From positions 12,318 through 76,317 of the forward strand of contig JACOXD010000011.1 of assembly GCA_016176465.1 (NCBI GenBank): a DNA stretch of 64,000 nt, written 5' to 3'. Positions within the stretch are counted from its first letter, which is position 1. Every line of letters starts with the position of its first letter. Origin of the DNA: Candidatus Daviesbacteria bacterium (lineage in GTDB: Bacteria; Patescibacteriota; Microgenomatia; Daviesbacterales; UBA10151). A program made the position numbers and the translations under genes. The notes under the pieces were generated by a model, which did no database searches, was not told where the DNA came from, and saw nothing but the letters and a program-made list of their open reading frames with translations. This document shows, piece after piece, positions 17,908-51,134 of the stretch.

Positions 17908-19278
17908 TTAGAGCTTAAATCTTCTGTCTGCTAAAAAAGGATTTGCTTTCCTATAAACTTTAACTGAGTTAAGTAAAACCCCTCTTTGCAAAGTAAACTC
18001 TCCAAACTTATCATTAATTTTATCTAAAGCTTTAGTTATAACTTCTTTTACTTTTACTTCTGGAAGAAGATTTAAGTTTTCAGGAGTTGTTGGTTTTAAA
18101 TTAGAAATAGAAATACCTATCATTCTTATAGCTTTCTCATCCCAAAGGCTCATGAATATCCCCCACCCTGTTTTAAATATTTCCAAACCGTCACTAGTAA
18201 AAGAAACTGTGCTTTGCGCTCCATCTCCTAAGAATCCAATCCCGGTTTGGAATTGAGGCGACAAACCGGGATTGTAGGTTTGTTTAAATGCATATCTAAA
18301 CCAAAGGGAAACAGTTTTACCTACTAGTTTTTTGGCTCGCATTCTTCTTGCAACTAATTCTGAAAGCTTAAGCAAGATTTGTTTAATTTCTTCATAAGAG
18401 TCTGCGTCATGATCTATTGTGTGTCTATGACCAATTGATTTTACTTCTTCTTTCTCATAAAAAGGGCTGACAGGAGAATCATCCAATCCCCTGCTCATGT
18501 TATATAAAGTTTGTCCATAACTTTTAAAAGAGGCTAATAAATACTCCAAGTTTACTCTTCTTAAATCAGAAAAATTAAAAATCCCCATATTATTTAACCT
18601 CCTTTTAATCCTAAACCCTATCCCACAAACCTCATTTAGCTCAATTTGGTCTAAAATTCTCATTGCTGCCTGCTCATCTGCTATTACCAGCAACCCATCG
18701 GGTTTGTATAAAGACCCAGCTAATTTAGCTAAAAATTTGTTATAAGAAATCCCAATAGAACATGTAATCCACTCCCCAATCTTAGCTCTTATTTGGGATT
18801 TAATATCTATAGCCATTTCAATAACGTCATTCCCGACCCGCTTCGCCGGAGCGAGAGCGAGGCGAGCCTGATCGGGAATCTGAATAGATCTCCCAATCGA
18901 GTTGGAAGATGACATTTTTAATTTGGGTGATGACTTCTTGGGCTGAGGCAGTTCTATAAATGCCTCATCGATAGAGAAAAGCTCTATATAGGGGGAATAG
19001 CTTTTTAGAATATTTAAAAATTTTTTAGTAGTAGATAAGTATTTATCAGAATCCCCTTTTACTAAAATTAATTGTGGACAAAGTTTTCTAGCTTCATATA
19101 AATTCATCCCAGTTTTTACCCCAAACTTTTTAGCCTCCACTGATGCAGCACCAACTACAGTCCTCTTCATTCTATCTCCACCAGTTACCCCAATAGGTTT
19201 ACCTCTAAGTCTTGGGTTAGCTTGCTGTTCAACCCTGGCAAAGTAGCTATTAAAATCTATATGTAATATTGTTCTCAT
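17908..19278 (-). CDS. dinB: DNA polymerase IV (Y-family, DinB) carrying two in-frame palindromic insertions
   Basis: ILHIDFNSYFARVEQ, SIDEAFIEL, YNKFLAKLAG; insertions at 18237-18274 and 18829-18879. Confidence 0.8.
   Translation of the reverse strand: MRTILHIDFNSYFARVEQQANPRLRGKPIGVTGGDRMKRTVVGAASVEAKKFGVKTGMNLYEARKLCPQLILVKGDSDKYLSTTKKFLNILKSYSPYIELFSIDEAFIELPQPKKSSPKLKMSSSNSIGRSIQIPDQARLALAPAKRVGNDVIEMAIDIKSQIRAKIGEWITCSIGISYNKFLAKLAGSLYKPDGLLVIADEQAAMRILDQIELNEVCGIGFRIKRRLNNMGIFNFSDLRRVNLEYLLASFKSYGQTLYNMSRGLDDSPVSPFYEKEEVKSIGHRHTIDHDADSYEEIKQILLKLSELVARRMRAKKLVGKTVSLWFRYAFKQTYNPGLSPQFQTGIGFLGDGAQSTVSFTSDGLEIFKTGWGIFMSLWDEKAIRMIGISISNLKPTTPENLNLLPEVKVKEVITKALDKINDKFGEFTLQRGVLLNSVKVYRKANPFLADRRFKL
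18237..18274. repeat. RPE-like palindromic element (perfect 13-bp stem CAATCCCGGTTTG/CAAACCGGGATTG) in frame within dinB
   Basis: Encodes YNPGLSPQFQTGIG; near-identical copies in uvrB and uvrC. Confidence 0.7.
18829..18879. repeat. GC-rich palindromic in-frame insertion in dinB (ATTCCCGA-35 nt-TCGGGAAT)
   Basis: ~70% GC segment in AT-rich gene; encodes extra loop IPDQARLALAPAKRVGNDV absent from canonical DinB. Confidence 0.5.
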
Positions 19279-19301
19279 CTGTGTTCGACCGTAGTGGAGA
19301 A

Positions 19302-19568
19302 CTACAACTTAAAGTTGTTTATTAAGATCTTTCTCTTTTTATCTTGACTCCAACCTTTAATCTGTTTTTCTCTTATCCTAGCTTGTTCATAATCATTATG
19401 TTGCTCAAAGTACACTAATCTCTTAACTCCATGCTTAGCAGTATATTTACCGCCTAACCCGCTTAAATGTTGTTCAAATCTTAGCTCTGGTTTCCATGTT
19501 AAGCCGGTATAATATGTTCCATCTCTACACTCAATGATATAGACATACCAGCTCCATTGATTTTTCAT
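19302..19568 (-). CDS. GIY-YIG nuclease family protein (UPF0213-like)
   Basis: WYVYIIECRDGTYYTGLT ... RFEQH ... GWSQDKK. Confidence 0.7.
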   Translation of the reverse strand: MKNQWSWYVYIIECRDGTYYTGLTWKPELRFEQHLSGLGGKYTAKHGVKRLVYFEQHNDYEQARIREKQIKGWSQDKKRKILINNFKL

Positions 19569-19606
19569 AGGTACTTCTCCATGCGCTTCGCTTAGTCGAA
19601 GATAAA

Positions 19607-19986: not shown

Positions 19987-21684
19987 ATGAAGTTTTTGCT
20001 CTGTTTGCTATTTTCTCTGTTGTTTCTTTTTTTTGCTCAACCTACCCAAGCCATTGTTAACCCAAACTCTGTTCCTAATAATAAATTTGGAATTCATATT
20101 ATCTCTGCAAGTATTGATGAGGCTTCCCCTGCAGGAAGTTTAGTTAACTCATCTGGTGGTGATTGGGGCTATATCACAGTCTTAATTGAGAGTAAAGACA
20201 GAGATAAAAATAAATGGCAGGCCTTTTTTGATGATTTAAGAAAAAGGCATTTAATTCCAATTGTACGGCTAGCCACACAACCAGATCCTGCTGGGTTTTG
20301 GAAAAGACCATACCAAAGGGAGGAAGAAGCTTGGGCTAATTTTTTGGATGAGTTAAACTGGCCTACAAAAAACAGGTATGTAATTATTTATAACGAGCCA
20401 AACCATGCAACAGAGTGGGGAAATAGTGTGGATGCTAAGGACTATGCTCAAACTCTCAATAAAACTATTGATGAACTTAAGAAAAAATCAGAGAATTTTT
20501 TTATCTTAAACGCAGGATTTGACGCCTCTGCTCCTGAGAAATTGCCTAATTACTCTGATCAATTTGAGTTTATGAGACAAATGAATGATGAAGTACCAGG
20601 CATTTTTAATAAACTTGACGGCTTTGCCTCTCACTCTTACCCTAACCCCGGCTTTGTTTCCTCACCTGATGATTTTGGAAGAGGTAGCGTACGTACTTTT
20701 GCCTGGGAGATGGGTGTTTTAAGAGAACTTGCAGTTAATAAAGATTTACCTATTTTTATTACTGAAACTGGCTGGAAACACTCAGATGGCCAAAAGTTTG
20801 ATCCATCTTTGCCTTCTCCTGAAAAGATAGCCCAAAATTATAAGATAGCTTTTGAGGGTGCTTGGAACAGTAATAGAATTGTGGCAGTTACCCCCTTTTT
20901 ATTAAATTATCAAGAGACTCCATTTGACCATTTTTCTTTCCAAAAAAATGGTGAGAAAAACTATCATCCTCAGTTTGTAGAAATTAAAAAAATGCCTAAA
21001 TTAAAAGGCAGACCTATTCAAGAAGACCAAGCTAATTTAGTAAAAGGAAAAATATTTAGCTCTCTAGTTGCAGGAGAAAATTATGCTATCGCACTAACTT
21101 TTAAAAATATCGGGCAATCTATTTGGAATGAGTATGAAACTGTTACCCTGCAAGCTGTCTTGGGCGGTGGAGAGCTGGAATTTAAGGGCGTGCCTATACC
21201 TAAAGGAGTTAAGGTAGAACCGGGCCAAGATCATACTTTTTTAGTGAAAATTAAAGCTCCTGGTGATGGAAAATATAAAATTGCCTTAAATTTATTTAGG
21301 GGGAATGAACAGTTTAGTTCAAAATCTGTTGAGTTTGAAACAGAAGTTAAATCTCCTGTTATCTTACAAGTTAAAGCTAAATTAAGGTGGAAAGAAAATT
21401 CATCCGGAGATTATATCTTAGGGGTAACAGGGGTAATTCAAGACAGCTTTAAAAAAATAGCTCTAAATTCAGGTGGGGAATCGGAAAATATAGAGATGAG
21501 GCAGTTGTTGCCTGAGTATACTTTTGAGTTTAGCTTAAGAAAACCTTACTATAAATCTAAATCTTTAATTCAAAATGTTAAATCTGGGATAAATACACTA
21601 GATTTTGGAATTTTGGAGCCAGACTTCCCAGCAGCAATTTTAAACCCCAAAGAATTATGGAAGTTATTACCTTTTAGTAATTAA
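19987..21684 (+). CDS. Secreted glycoside hydrolase, clan GH-A (GH5-like) with C-terminal beta-sandwich region
   Basis: Signal peptide; NEPN acid/base and ITETGW nucleophile motifs. Confidence 0.5.
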   Translation: MKFLLCLLFSLLFLFFAQPTQAIVNPNSVPNNKFGIHIISASIDEASPAGSLVNSSGGDWGYITVLIESKDRDKNKWQAFFDDLRKRHLIPIVRLATQPDPAGFWKRPYQREEEAWANFLDELNWPTKNRYVIIYNEPNHATEWGNSVDAKDYAQTLNKTIDELKKKSENFFILNAGFDASAPEKLPNYSDQFEFMRQMNDEVPGIFNKLDGFASHSYPNPGFVSSPDDFGRGSVRTFAWEMGVLRELAVNKDLPIFITETGWKHSDGQKFDPSLPSPEKIAQNYKIAFEGAWNSNRIVAVTPFLLNYQETPFDHFSFQKNGEKNYHPQFVEIKKMPKLKGRPIQEDQANLVKGKIFSSLVAGENYAIALTFKNIGQSIWNEYETVTLQAVLGGGELEFKGVPIPKGVKVEPGQDHTFLVKIKAPGDGKYKIALNLFRGNEQFSSKSVEFETEVKSPVILQVKAKLRWKENSSGDYILGVTGVIQDSFKKIALNSGGESENIEMRQLLPEYTFEFSLRKPYYKSKSLIQNVKSGINTLDFGILEPDFPAAILNPKELWKLLPFSN

Positions 21685-24797: not shown

Positions 24798-24976
24798 GCA
24801 CCCTTAAGTGACGCCCCAGCTCTTGATGTGTCTAGTCTTCGACCCTGAGGACTTCGACGGTGAGCTCAGTCGAACCGCTCAGACCGAAGGGCTAACCCAC
24901 ACCGGGTGTGGGGTGTGTAGGAATTGTTAAATTACCTACTTGCATAAATAAAAAATATCCTGGTATACTCGGCTAT

Positions 24977-39305: not shown

Positions 39306-40619
39306 TTATATACCTACTCTGCTAAACATTTTTTTACTTCTTAACTTAAGGTGATAGTTAAGTGCAAAACGGTGGGATTCATCTCTGATTTTTTGCAATA
39401 AACGAAGAGACATTCTTCTTTTAGGGATCTTTACAATTTCTCCCTCAATTGGATATAACCTCTCCATTTTTTTTGCCAATCCAAATATAGGAATACTTAC
39501 TTCTCGTTTCTCTAAGATAGCGGCCACCCCTCTAACCTGACCTCTCCCTCCATCGATTATAATTAAATCTGGAAAGGGCCACTCAGGATGATTTAGTCTC
39601 CTCCTCATCATCTCAGATAGCATTGCTACATCATTAGGTTTTCCAGTAATTTTTATTTTAAACTTTCGATACTGCGATTTATCTATTTCTCCATTTGCTA
39701 AAACTACAAGTGATCCTGAAGCTTCCCCCCCTTGAATATTAGAAATATCATAACCTTCAATCCTCTTAGGCAAATTAGGCAATTTCAAATCCGTCATTAG
39801 CTGCTTTAATCCCAACTTATTTTGGTCTTCCAAAAAATTAGGATTATCTAAATACATTGAAATCTCAGTTGGTTGGGTAATATATTCAATCCCAGAAATT
39901 GTTTTCTTTAAAGTTTCTGCCTTTTCAAATTGCAAGTTTTTTGCAAGATCTTTCATTTCAACTTGCAACTCACTTAACAAAACTTCTTTTTCTCCACCTA
40001 TAAATTTAATAAAGCGGTTAATAATTTTTCGGTACTCTTTTGCATCTATCAAACCTATACAGGCTCCGGGACAAAGTCTTAGATGATAGTAAAAACATGG
40101 TCTAGCTTTCCAATCCCGGATTGGATTTGAATTGACAATCCGGGATTGGATGGTTATTTTCGATGGATTAGAACACCAAGGGAAGACTCTCCTTATTTTT
40201 TTTAAAGTTTGATTAACAGTACGGGATGAAGGAAAAGGACCAAAATATTTCAATGCATCGCTTAGTTCCTGCTTTCTGGAAGTTATTATCCTTGGGAACT
40301 TTTCCTTAGTGACTTTAATATAAAGATAATCTTTATTATCAGTTAAGCGGACGTTAAAGGTGGGCAAATTTTTTTTAATTAAATTGGCTTCCAAAATAAG
40401 TGCTTCTAATTCCGATTCCACCACAAAAAAAACAATGTCGGCAATACTTTCTACTAATTGGGCTGTTTTTAAAGATGATCTATCTCTAAAATAGGAGGCA
40501 ACCCTGGACTTTAAATCTACTGCTTTGCCCACATATAAAATGTCACCTTTTAAATCTTTAAATATGTAAACGCCACTTTTGTGAGGAATATCCTCTTTCG
40601 ATAAATTCTTGGGAATCAT
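39306..40619 (-). CDS. uvrC: Excinuclease ABC subunit C (short form lacking C-terminal HhH2) with in-frame palindromic insertion
   Basis: GIY-YIG SGVYIFKDLKGDILYVGKA, UVR domain, RDESHRFAL; 437 aa. Confidence 0.8.
   Translation of the reverse strand: MIPKNLSKEDIPHKSGVYIFKDLKGDILYVGKAVDLKSRVASYFRDRSSLKTAQLVESIADIVFFVVESELEALILEANLIKKNLPTFNVRLTDNKDYLYIKVTKEKFPRIITSRKQELSDALKYFGPFPSSRTVNQTLKKIRRVFPWCSNPSKITIQSRIVNSNPIRDWKARPCFYYHLRLCPGACIGLIDAKEYRKIINRFIKFIGGEKEVLLSELQVEMKDLAKNLQFEKAETLKKTISGIEYITQPTEISMYLDNPNFLEDQNKLGLKQLMTDLKLPNLPKRIEGYDISNIQGGEASGSLVVLANGEIDKSQYRKFKIKITGKPNDVAMLSEMMRRRLNHPEWPFPDLIIIDGGRGQVRGVAAILEKREVSIPIFGLAKKMERLYPIEGEIVKIPKRRMSLRLLQKIRDESHRFALNYHLKLRSKKMFSRVGI
40110..40149. 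repeat. RPE-like palindromic element (15-bp stem CCAATCCCGGATTGG/CCAATCCGGGATTGG) in frame within uvrC
   Basis: Encodes IQSRIVNSNPIRDW; read in a different frame from the dinB/uvrB copies. Confidence 0.7.
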
Positions 40620-49115: not shown

Positions 49116-51134
49116 TTAACTGCTTAATTCTCTTATTTGATCCCTTAATCTTGCTGCTGTTTCAAAATCTAAAAGTGCTGCAGCATCTCTCATCTGTTTT
49201 TCTAATTCTTTAATAATTCTTCCTCTCTCTTTTAATGGTATATCTTCAACTGTTAATACATCCTTCCCTAATTTTTCCTCAACTTTTTCTATTAACCTTT
49301 CCCTTAATGCTTTTTCTATCGAGCGTGGTTTAATTTTATGTTTTTTATTAAATTCTATTTGATAATTCCTTCTTCTTGAAACCTCATCTATTGCTCCTTG
49401 TATTGATTTAGTAATGGTGTCTGCATACATGATTACTGCTCCATCAACGTGTCTGGCAGCACGACCCATTGTTTGGATTAAAGATGTTTTTGACCTTAAA
49501 AATCCTTCTTTATCTGCATCCAAAATAATAACCAAAGATACTTCAGGTAAATCTAACCCTTCCCTTAAAAGATTAATTCCTACAATTACATCAAATTCCC
49601 CTAATCTTAAACTTTGTAAAATATCAGAACGCTCTAAAGTAGCAATATCTGAGTGTAAATAATTGACTCTAATCCCCTTTTCTTTAAGGTAATCAGTTAA
49701 ATCCTCAGCCATCCTTTTAGTTAAAGTGGTTATTAAAACTCTCTCACCTTTACTTACCCTTTTTTCTACTTCCTTAATTACATCTTCAATTTGCCCCTCT
49801 GTTTTTCTAACAGATACTTGCGGATCAACAATACCTGTGGGTCTTACTAATTGCTGGGCTACATTGTTTGGGCTTCCAATCCCGGTTTGGAACTGAGTTG
49901 ACAAACCGGGATTGTAGCCTGCAAGTGAAAACTCATATTCATCAGGAGTAGCAGAAACATAGACAGCTTGATTAACCCTCCTCATAAACTCCTCAAACTT
50001 TAAGGGCCTATTATCTAGTGCGCTAGGCAACCTAAAACCAAATTCAACTAAAGTCTCCTTCCTGGAGCGATCGCCGTTATACATTCCTCTAATTTGAGGG
50101 ATGGTAATGTGGGATTCATCAATAATTATTAAATAATCTTTAGGAAAAAAATCTAAAAGAGTATAGGGTGGTTCACCTGGATCTCTACCATCAAAATATC
50201 TTGAGTAATTCTCAATCCCATTACAAAAACCAAACTCCTTTATCATCTCCAAATCATAATAAGTGCGCTGTTCTAACCTTTGAGACTCAAGTAATTTTCC
50301 TTGAGATTTTAAATCTTTCAATCTTAACCTTAAATCATCTTCAATTTGAAAAGTTGCTGGTTTAATTAATTGTTGAGGTGTTATATAGTGTTTTGCAGGA
50401 TACAAAGTTAAAGTTTCTAGAGTAGGAATTGACTTGCCAGTAAGAGGATCCAAATGGGAAACTCTTTCAATTTTATCTTCCAAAAACTCAATCCTTAATG
50501 CAAAGTCAGAGTAAGCTGGGAAGATATCTAAAGTGTCTCCTTTTAATCTATACGTTCCTCTTTCAAAGTCAAAATCATTTCGGACGTAAAACATTTTATT
50601 AAGCATCTTTAAGATAGATTCCATTCCTGATTTAACTCCATTTTTTAGTTGCAGTATTGCCCCTCCATATTCCTTCGGTGAACCTAAGTTATAAATACAA
50701 GAAACAGAGGCTACAACTACAACATCAGACCTAGTCATTAAAGAAGTAGTTGTTGAGAGTCGCAGTTTTTCAATCTCCTCGTTAATGGATGCATCTTTTT
50801 CAATATAGGTATCAGATGAAGGAACATAAGCCTCAGGCTGGTAATAATCATAGTAAGAAACAAAATACTCAACGGCATTTTCAGGAAATAAGGACTTAAA
50901 TTCTTGTGCCAATTGCCCGGCTAATGTTTTATTATGAGAGATAACTAGTGTTGGTCTATTTACAGCTTGGATGACATTAGCCACAGTAAAAGTTTTACCA
51001 GAACCTGTTACACCAAGCAAAACTTGATGTTTCTCATTATCCTTAATCCCCCTTACTAATTTCTCAATAGCTTGGGGCTGATCACCAGTAGGCTTAAAAT
51101 CTGAAATTATTTTAAACTTAGACATAAAGTTCAT
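49116..51134 (-). CDS. uvrB: Excinuclease ABC subunit B with in-frame palindromic insertion
   Basis: [10 protein letters not shown], helicase motifs, C-terminal UVR domain; insertion at 49877-49914. Confidence 0.95.
49877..49914. repeat. RPE-like palindromic element (perfect 13-bp stem, same arms as the dinB copy) in frame within uvrB
   Basis: caatcccggtttgg-aactgagttga-caaaccgggattg encodes [14 protein letters not shown]. Confidence 0.7.

Follow-up and report, generated by a model that had tools for sequence, protein, structure and literature searches.

REP-B, a long-loop CGTC-tagged hairpin repeat carried in frame within dinB of a Daviesbacteria genome

The dinB gene (DNA polymerase IV) in a 64-kb stretch of Daviesbacteria DNA, here called the window, carries within its reading frame a GC-rich palindrome that we designate REP-B. 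We consider it likely that REP-B is one unit of a dimer of CGTC-tagged repetitive extragenic palindromes (REPs), a variant with a long loop, and that it is a selfish passenger tolerated in frame in a loop of the DinB protein. By this account the dimer would be translated as M122-D151 and tolerated as a disordered segment of a DinB surface loop, with a conserved GC-rich inner hairpin of ~30 nt nested in an otherwise 5-nt loop; the composite would spread whole in the genomes of Daviesbacteria and their relatives, for the most part into intergenic DNA; and selection would keep the element in frame, its presence being most likely neutral for DinB. Such selfish spread would presumably involve a hairpin intermediate in single-stranded form and an enzyme specific for hairpins to process it, the candidate mover being a single-stranded DNA (ssDNA) nuclease of the Ssn-type GIY-YIG kind.

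CGTC-tagged REPs were defined by Di Nocera, De Gregorio & Rocco (2013, BMC Genomics 14:522; PMC3733652) as hairpins with an unpaired CGTC/TGTC (or CCTC) tag, an 8-9 bp stem starting A, T, a loop of 4-5 nt and a 3-nt tail that is mostly CCA, preferentially arranged as dimers, occasionally intragenic and without an associated transposase; Neisseria dRS3 (CGTC-1) and Rickettsia conorii RPE-6 and RPE-4 are members, and atypical loops were noted in a few taxa (PMC3733652). The palindrome in the window reads ATTCCCGA CCCGCTTCGCCGGAGCGAGAGCGAGGCGAGCCTGA TCGGGAAT on the forward strand, exactly the arms and loop given in an earlier note on this DNA, and it has the tag of the class, a stem of the class length whose first positions are A and T, and a partner in the opposite orientation (Table 1). 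The tags of REP-B and its partner, REP-A, point outward and their tails (CTG in REP-B and CTA in REP-A; CCA, CTA or CCAG in relatives) lie 2 nt apart, the dimer spanning 90 nt or 30 codons (18825-18914, M122-D151); the long-loop copies in L026, L056 and most metagenome contigs are laid out likewise. REP-A, which is also found in the orthologous loci L063, L002 and L003, folds as DNA with -4.7 kcal/mol (z -2.4). Because the defining 4-5 nt loop is absent, REP-B is not a plain member of the class, and on its sequence we set it apart as a long-loop variant. The loop of DinB is too divergent among homologues for the edges of the dimer to be defined against an empty site.

These features modify the original description of the locus. 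The insertion unit is palindromic as had been proposed, although it comprises more than the 51-nt palindrome, being a REP dimer with an inner module nested in an older short-loop hairpin. Similarly, dinB was thought to hold two palindromic insertions and in fact holds three units (REP-B, REP-A and a separate palindrome at the second insert of the gene), the last of which is of the untagged AATCCCGG type, a different family from that of REP-B, in agreement with the note. The suggestion of a miniature inverted-repeat transposable element (MITE) with target-site duplication had to be abandoned, the arms being 8 bp without long terminal inverted repeats and the junctions offering only a 2-nt GG/CC ambiguity.

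Comparison with orthologues places the long loop beside a short one. DinB was aligned with 120 Daviesbacteria homologues (60-75% identity), of which P0002, P0003 and P0004 are the closest (69-74% identical; DNA in fetched loci L001-L003); the best match among the GTDB species representatives scanned has 72% identity. At the same codons L001-L003 carry ATTCCCGA-TCAGG-TCGGGAAT (GCCGGGAAT in L003), with a 5-nt loop, and the window differs from them by a single clean 30-nt gap with a 2-nt GG/CC junction ambiguity (alignment A2). The peptide is IPDQ-ARLALAPAKR-VGND in the window, IPDQ-VGND in P0002 and P0003, and IPDQ-AGND in P0004, leaving only 10 lineage-specific codons at the site. Homologues encoding the same loop in AT-rich DNA, named in the earlier note as contrary evidence, were not found, and the IPDQVGND homologues are encoded by the same palindrome. 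Short-loop units of the clade have loops CTTGA or CCTGA, and the long loop is such a loop interrupted after base one or two by ~30 nt; at the level of the family, the long form therefore derives from a short-loop REP that gained an inner hairpin.

The composite recurs at other genomic positions. Short-word BLAST and pattern searches of the fetched loci retrieved an 88% match over 57 nt at L026:3472-3532 (arms ATTCCGGA/TCCGGAAT) and a second full long-loop copy at L056:6922-6981 (arms ATTCCGTG/CACGGAAT), both intergenic and both occupying second place in a dimer, after a unit that reads (C/T)GTCATTCCCGCG(A/T)AGGCGGGAATC. Scanning metagenomes with the pattern GGCGAAGCGGGNNNGGAATGAC, which constrained neither the 5' arm nor three variable arm bases, yielded ~15 low-GC contigs with the long-loop unit, usually second in a dimer with TGTCAT(T/C)CCCGCGAAAGCGGG(A/G)ATCC as first unit; contig Ga0155961_115 has two long-form copies (L095, L107). 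Altogether 12 distinct long-loop copies are known from Daviesbacteria metagenome-assembled genomes (MAGs) and low-GC metagenome contigs, mostly intergenic, other hosts being unrelated genes such as those for TatD, glutamyl-tRNA synthetase (GluRS) and an O-antigen-ligase-like protein. In the alignment of these 12 copies (A5) mean column identity is 89%, and the copy in L126 differs from that in the window at ~4/60 positions. The outer 8-bp helix is 100% paired, with double changes at three pairs (CG/GC 6:6, GC/UA, AU/GC), and the inner 7-bp helix is nearly invariant and 96% paired; pairing over the whole structure is 98%, and at most 46% when the partner columns are slid. The core CCCGCTTCGCC..AGCGA..GGCGAGC recurs in L026, L056, L059, L070, L016, L027, L038 and metagenome contigs. 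The long-loop family is real but low-copy. Two further units are independent cases of REP loop enlargement: L074:113-166 in dinB (WIPDHGSASLTTGVRDDN), which has ATCCCGGA-N29-TCCGGGAT where L028 has a -TCAAG- loop, and the first unit of the L095 dimer (ATTCCCGC-GAAGCTTGCCCTCGACTCCGATCGGAGG-GCGGGAAT), ~35 nt upstream of the long-form unit.

These copies also bear on where the 30 nt came from. A foreign origin, suggested earlier on account of GC content, is unsupported, because every family copy lies in low-GC CPR-like DNA (Candidate Phyla Radiation; GC of the family-bearing Daviesbacteria/CPR-like contigs 0.37-0.49) and high GC is intrinsic to hairpin repeats. It is highly improbable that the 30 nt arose locally, through replication slippage or a template switch at the hairpin already there, or as filler DNA, with no dispersed element involved: the same inner module sits in like arms at non-homologous loci of other genomes with 85-95% identity, although the GG/CC microhomology that both junctions show, the short CTCGCT tandem inside and the single copy in the window would suit such an origin. 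An error of assembly or binning (a chimeric read, a misjoin) might be suspected in a window taken from a MAG, whose exact DinB protein has no entry in the gene-position index, and we find it scarcely credible here, given that the exact 30-nt difference preserves the reading frame, the flanks are collinear with those of three orthologues, near-identical units occur in independent assemblies, and the identical protein is deposited at NCBI (the Daviesbacteria 'DNA polymerase IV', P0001). The UvrB of the window is likewise identical to an NCBI 'Candidatus Daviesbacteria bacterium' entry (CPR/Microgenomates).

The GC-rich core (CCCGCTTCGCC..AGCGAGGCGAG) was also observed without REP arms, at L070:9058-9096, L016:9331-9375 and L027:18758-18813, where it forms part of a ~70-nt conserved non-coding block (GAATAATCTGATAAACTCTGGCAG-core-TCTGGCTAAGATCACGTCAGGAGC) flanked by a CTGGC direct repeat. 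This armless core is tandemly doubled in L027, and the block has no Rfam match.

Within the window, the 50-nt stretch around the palindrome has 70% GC against 35% (0.35) for the whole, and the best 40-mer there (0.75) is the top of all 64 kb, above every tRNA. Extended inward, the palindrome has imperfect arms of 19 nt (79% complementary). An 8-bp inverted repeat is by itself unremarkable, since the window contains 105 comparable generic pairs and a relaxed scan for hairpins with GTC and an AT-stem found 4 where Markov shuffles gave 2.6. The exact arms were matched a single time in the window and in 0/100 dinucleotide shuffles, a weak test inasmuch as the pattern was picked after it had been sighted. 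What raises REP-B above chance is the top-GC 40-mer, the 19-nt imperfect arms and the near-identical copies elsewhere; the case for it lies in composition and, above all, in those related copies. The region folds somewhat better than shuffled sequence as DNA (-14.5 to -15.8 kcal/mol, z -1.8 to -2.6) and as RNA has -32.8 kcal/mol (z -2.6). In Rfam, searched at gathering and at permissive thresholds, positions 18700-19000 had no match even at E up to 10, and the whole window and the related loci gave tRNAs only. Readings as a terminator or promoter were dropped, there being neither a T-run terminator nor a promoter-like site at the element, as were those as an intein or intron (the element is too short and is translated in frame), a diversity-generating retroelement target (it varies in length, not by A-directed substitutions) and a CRISPR (no array in the window).

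The site that received the dimer is predicted to be a disordered surface loop of the palm, right after the catalytic SIDE strand. An AlphaFold2 model of the window DinB, built with the 120-sequence alignment, has a confident Y-family fold outside the two inserts; the predicted local distance difference test (pLDDT) falls below 50 at residues 116-146, between strand 105-110 and helix 150-166, and is 52-57 in the second insert near residues 330-350. Query residues 2-115 and 153-434 align to residues 3-114 and 117-377 of the chain in 7yll, the best match of known structure, such that ~37 residues (116-152) are without a counterpart. Orthologue alignment and solved structure thus agree with the earlier note that dinB carries an in-frame palindromic insertion relative to other DinB proteins; the extra length it had claimed is real, its value being ~37 residues relative to 7yll rather than ~30, of which the palindrome accounts for 17. 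The catalytic residues D8 and D104/E105 lie in invariant columns of the alignment, and together with the low pLDDT this is consistent with a disordered palm excursion tolerated as a passenger. On the coding strand the element can be read through in two of the three frames, and its lengths of 30 nt and 90 nt, both multiples of three, fit selection for frame.

This loop behaves as an insertion hot spot. The segment between the ...FSIDEAF.E. strand and the next helix (..IA..IK.RI) ranges from 2 to 47 residues (median 15) among the 120 homologues, with at least 20 residues in 48 and at most 8 in 45, and has ~10 residues in distant DinB proteins. It is filled by REPs of various types, with peptides such as VIPAKAGIQ..WIPDQVRDD and SVIARSEATKQS..DCHAPSGLAMT. 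In L028, for example, the same codons hold another dimer of the class (TGTCATTCCTGCGAAAGCAGGAATCCA ... TGGATCCCGGATCAAGTCCGGGATGACA), coding SVIPAKAGIH..WIPDQVRDD, and VIPAKAGI is also encoded by intragenic R. conorii CGTC-1 units. The dimer type seen in L028 occupies a second dinB site in L042 and L067, which argues that dimers entered dinB more than once. We counted REP inserts by a DNA-level scan, the background of a peptide-motif regex on the 120 homologues being too high: the Daviesbacteria DNA scanned around dinB amounts to 1.04 Mb and contains 24 short-loop CGTC-type hairpins, 16 of them inside dinB, which makes up ~8% of that DNA. The excess is suggestive only, as the copies are partly inherited and do not represent independent events.

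The variability of the loop also speaks to the idea that the extra residues serve the protein as an adaptation, for instance as a lineage-specific DinB interaction loop, to which the palindrome is incidental. The insert is in frame and the gene intact, and eukaryotic Pol kappa has a long insert at the same position. We nevertheless judge this very unlikely: close relatives differ greatly in both the length and the sequence of the loop, which is predicted to be disordered, the same DNA unit is found intergenically and in other reading frames, and what is conserved is the pairing of the DNA and not the peptide, whose conservation under synonymous change is largely absent.

A different functional explanation would make the hairpins cis-elements, either as ssDNA sites at which an Ssn-type GIY-YIG nuclease, possibly the product of the upstream gene, binds or cuts, or as mRNA hairpins tuning the expression of this mutagenic polymerase; by either route dinB, and possibly other repair genes, would be marked for common control or for the control of recombination and transformation. 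The compensatory changes in the outer stem and the RNA fold of the region favour this reading. CGTC-type hairpins are ~25-fold denser in dinB than in its flanks, the untagged palindrome occurs in the window only in dinB, uvrC and uvrB, and intragenic REPs are concentrated in replication/repair genes, including those for error-prone polymerases (PMC3733652). On balance we think it unlikely, however. The dinB counts are not independent, the copies being inherited; the site has taken up inserts of many unrelated kinds, and most family copies are intergenic or in unrelated genes; and since the 45/120 Daviesbacteria DinB genes with at most 8 aa at the loop have no insert, no conserved function is required.

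The upstream gene itself points both ways. A small gene for a single-domain GIY-YIG protein abuts dinB, 23 nt upstream of it and 420 nt from REP-B, and its relatives adjoin dinB in L040, L034, L073 and L074. At L034:5510-5895 a different, 96-aa single-domain GIY-YIG gene has a CGTC-tagged hairpin on either side, the two being inverted (CGTCATTGCGAGGAACGAAGTGACGAAGCAATCTC and GAGATTGCTTCGG..CTCGCAATGACG), in an 'SRM-ssn-SRM' layout; it lies between dinB and the same 81-aa open reading frame (ORF) that is found at this position in the window. Yet a GIY-YIG gene lies within 10 kb of dinB at only 7 of ~62 loci. The best solved relatives of the window protein are the UPF0213 proteins 1zg2 and 1ywl (PDB), and an NCBIfam search with it gave no match; its homologues (88-105 aa, 60-81% identical) occur in CPR, Omnitrophica and others, between unrelated housekeeping genes. 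The subfamily has inverted flanks of its own, TATTCTTCGAC..GGAGAAGTA-ATG and TTCTCCAC..GGTCGAACAATAG, which are conserved, and the window's gene with its flanks (19279-19605) is a mobile cassette, one that lands in unrelated contexts. The adjacent protein was considered as the cognate enzyme of REP-B and set aside as a conjecture, in that its homologues' flanks are unlike REP-B and their contexts unrelated. An intergenic GC-rich island elsewhere in the window (24834-24921, AGTCTTCGACC..CAGTCGAACCGCTCAGACCGAAGGGCTAACCCACACCGGGTGTGGGG) has TCTTCGAC / GTCGAAC motifs like those of the cassette flanks, and may be a solo flank hairpin.

A role for enzymes of this type is suggested by what is known of Ssn proteins. 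These small single-domain GIY-YIG proteins (cd10448, about 90-100 aa) bind to hairpin repeats in single-stranded form, cleaving the DNA a few nucleotides upstream, and ssn genes often have hairpins on both sides (PMC11893778). SsnA acts on the hairpin CGTCATTCCCGCG..GCGGGAATC as ssDNA; its critical bases are GTC and the C after the palindrome, that C being the most critical for NTS binding in Neisseria, and loop identity is dispensable, changes and extensions of the loop being tolerated (PMC11893778). The substrates are the NTS (CGTCATTCCCGCGMAVGCGGGAATCYRG) and the more degenerate SRM (PMC11893778), which we searched for as HGTCWYN(0-2)YYVSBRHN(0-5)WNVSBRGN(0-2)RNCYNB for SRM and with at most 1 mismatch for NTS. 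The first unit of L074 and the second of L028 pass the SRM pattern. REP-B retains GTC, 7/8 stem positions per arm and the C after the palindrome, features that are critical for SsnA and that would also serve a cis-element; by analogy, an Ssn-type enzyme may act on REP-B.

Several observations weigh against our interpretation of REP-B as a selfish REP unit. Its loop of 35 nt violates the 4-5 nt of the class, and the orthologous units have the canonical 5. A covariance model finds only 3 full long copies (window, L026, L056) in 1.08 Mb of Daviesbacteria loci, its other matches being partial, to the core alone or to short-loop units; the 64-kb window holds a single copy each of REP-B and REP-A, and no further REP-B copy was found there by exact arm search or by a loop search allowing 3 mismatches. 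In a neighbour-joining tree the window is sister to (P0002,(P0003,P0004)) in 300/300 bootstraps, so that at the dinB locus one gain or one loss of 30 nt fits equally: either the window lineage gained the inner module or the sister clade lost it. REP-B fails the NTS and SRM patterns, its innermost pair being A-T and its loop too long, and the short-loop orthologue and REP-A fail them too; the hairpins flanking the GIY-YIG cassette differ from REP-B. Lastly, the compensatory conservation of the stem could mark function and not selfish maintenance.

Table 1. Positions in the window of dinB, of the repeats within it and of associated features
Feature	Position	Strand	Description
dinB, DNA polymerase IV	17908-19278	-	456 aa, intact ORF; Pfam IMS, IMS_HHH_1, IMS_C
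REP-B palindrome	18829-18879	+	ATTCCCGA-N35-TCGGGAAT; in frame in dinB, codes I134-N150
REP-B tag	18825-18828	+	CGTC, unpaired, directly before the arm; TGTC in orthologues
REP-B 5' arm	18829-18836	+	ATTCCCGA; 8 bp, begins AT; paired in 12/12 family copies
REP-B loop	18837-18871	+	35 nt; 5-nt loop CCTGA, called ancestral, plus inserted module
GC-rich inner hairpin module	18839-18868	+	30 nt; codes A138-R147 (ARLALAPAKR); absent from the three closest orthologues
REP-B 3' arm	18872-18879	+	TCGGGAAT; perfect 8-bp partner of the 5' arm
REP-B tail	18880-18882	+	CTG, unpaired; starts with C directly after the palindrome
REP-A, partner unit	18885-18914	-	TGTC-ATCTTCCAA-CTCGA-TTGGGAGAT-CTA; stem of 9 bp including one T.G, loop of 5 nt
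Duplicated left half of REP-A	18915-18935	-	21 nt, GTCATCACCCAAATTAAAAAT; shared by the window and P0003, missing from P0002 and P0004
GIY-YIG cassette 3' flank	19279-19301	-	TTCTCCACTACGGTCGAACACAG; abuts the dinB start codon; conserved with L127, L134, L135; unique in the window
Single-domain GIY-YIG nuclease gene	19302-19568	-	88 aa; Pfam GIY-YIG, E 1.3e-16; candidate hairpin-ssDNA nuclease
GIY-YIG cassette 5' flank	19569-19605	-	..ATCTTCGACTAAGCGAAGCGCATGGAGAAGTACCT; conserved with homologue flanks
Untagged palindrome in dinB	18238-18273		in frame
Untagged palindrome in uvrC	40112-40147		in frame; uvrC 39306-40619
Untagged palindrome in uvrB	49878-49913		in frame; uvrB 49116-51134

Other insertions were seen in repair genes and beyond. 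Of the untagged palindrome family, CCAATCCCGG(T/A)TTGGA..CAA(A/T)CCGGGATTG, the 64 kb contain exactly three full copies (Table 1); it codes NPGLS(P/T)QFQTGIG in dinB and uvrB, and elsewhere in the fetched loci occurs only in dinB of L002. Daviesbacteria UvrB has an insertion hot spot of its own: near residue 410, where the window protein carries this palindrome, 25/120 homologues (P0241-P0360) have 6-44 extra residues, some of which look REP-derived (e.g. NAGIQLSSSRSEMDSR). Further GC-rich in-frame inserts occur in L031 (10105-10150; 8320-8372), one at a third dinB site (VTGGDRM-PASPDERASRGGE-RTV) and the other in a 522-aa homologue of the window ORF 19987-21684 (weak GH5-like match). The IMG/VR viral contigs L006 and L008 contain tandem GTCATTCCCGA units with a period of ~22 nt (e.g. 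L008:2130-2315), along with many dispersed GTCATTCCCGA..TCGGGAATCC hairpins.

If REP-B is the selfish REP unit we take it to be, CGTC-tagged REP and NTS-like hairpins extend to the CPR, and the composite would be a natural 'hairpin within a hairpin' that propagates as a unit, matching the loop tolerance reported for Ssn nucleases. The DinB palm loop after SIDE offers a clean, densely sampled case of one loop repeatedly absorbing selfish palindromes in frame, and adds an independent case to the intragenic concentration of REPs in DNA replication and repair genes. REP inserts of this kind would inflate and diversify protein lengths in CPR MAGs and would explain the recurrent annotated peptide strings VIPAKAGIQ, WIPDQVRDD and IPDQ..VGND. 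The concentration of hairpin repeats in repair genes, which echoes an unexplained remark in PMC3733652, is the most interesting thread. One could imagine, as a long shot, that such repeats, far from being randomly placed in these reduced genomes, are preferentially fixed in repair genes and act there as addresses for an Ssn-type GIY-YIG ssDNA nuclease or as mRNA hairpins, coupling ssDNA stress to these genes; CGTC-type dimers at two dinB loops across Daviesbacteria, the untagged palindrome confined in the window to dinB, uvrC and uvrB, and a mobile GIY-YIG gene repeatedly beside dinB would be the observations in its favour. Were this the case, CPR bacteria, with no LexA-type regulon evident here, would have a repeat-based means by which ssDNA stress affects how mutagenic and excision-repair genes are expressed or whether they stay intact.

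Among known systems the closest to REP-B are the CGTC-tagged REPs, with which it shares the tag, the AT stem of 8-9 bp, a short tail, the opposite dimer and intragenic, in-frame copies in repair genes, including the VIPAKAGI peptide in the dinB of relatives. It differs from them in its 35-nt loop with a conserved inner hairpin, its CTG tail, its low copy number (one in the window) and a host phylum, CPR/Patescibacteria, outside the five phyla listed (PMC3733652). The NTS/Ssn system (Chenal et al. 2025, Nat Commun 16:2388) shares with REP-B the CGTC, ATTCCCG..CGGGAAT and then C-Y-R, and has parallels in the small single-domain GIY-YIG gene within 0.5 kb and the SRM-gene-SRM layout in L034; REP-B departs from it in failing the NTS/SRM patterns, and its neighbouring GIY-YIG gene has other flanks. 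Rickettsia RPE-1 (Ogata et al. 2000, cited in PMC3733652) likewise comprises selfish palindromes translated in frame and tolerated in surface-exposed segments, but is ~100-150 bp long and unrelated in sequence, compared with a tagged hairpin of 29-59 nt here, or 90 nt as a dimer. Finally, GTAG REPs of the REPIN/RAYT type and MITEs resemble the element in being hairpins arranged as inverted doublets with presumed non-autonomous spread. The REP-B tag is CGTC and not GTAG, no transposase domain or RAYT/IS200-type gene occurs among the annotated neighbouring ORFs, and the element, in contrast to MITEs, is without 15-30 bp terminal inverted repeats and without a target-site duplication.

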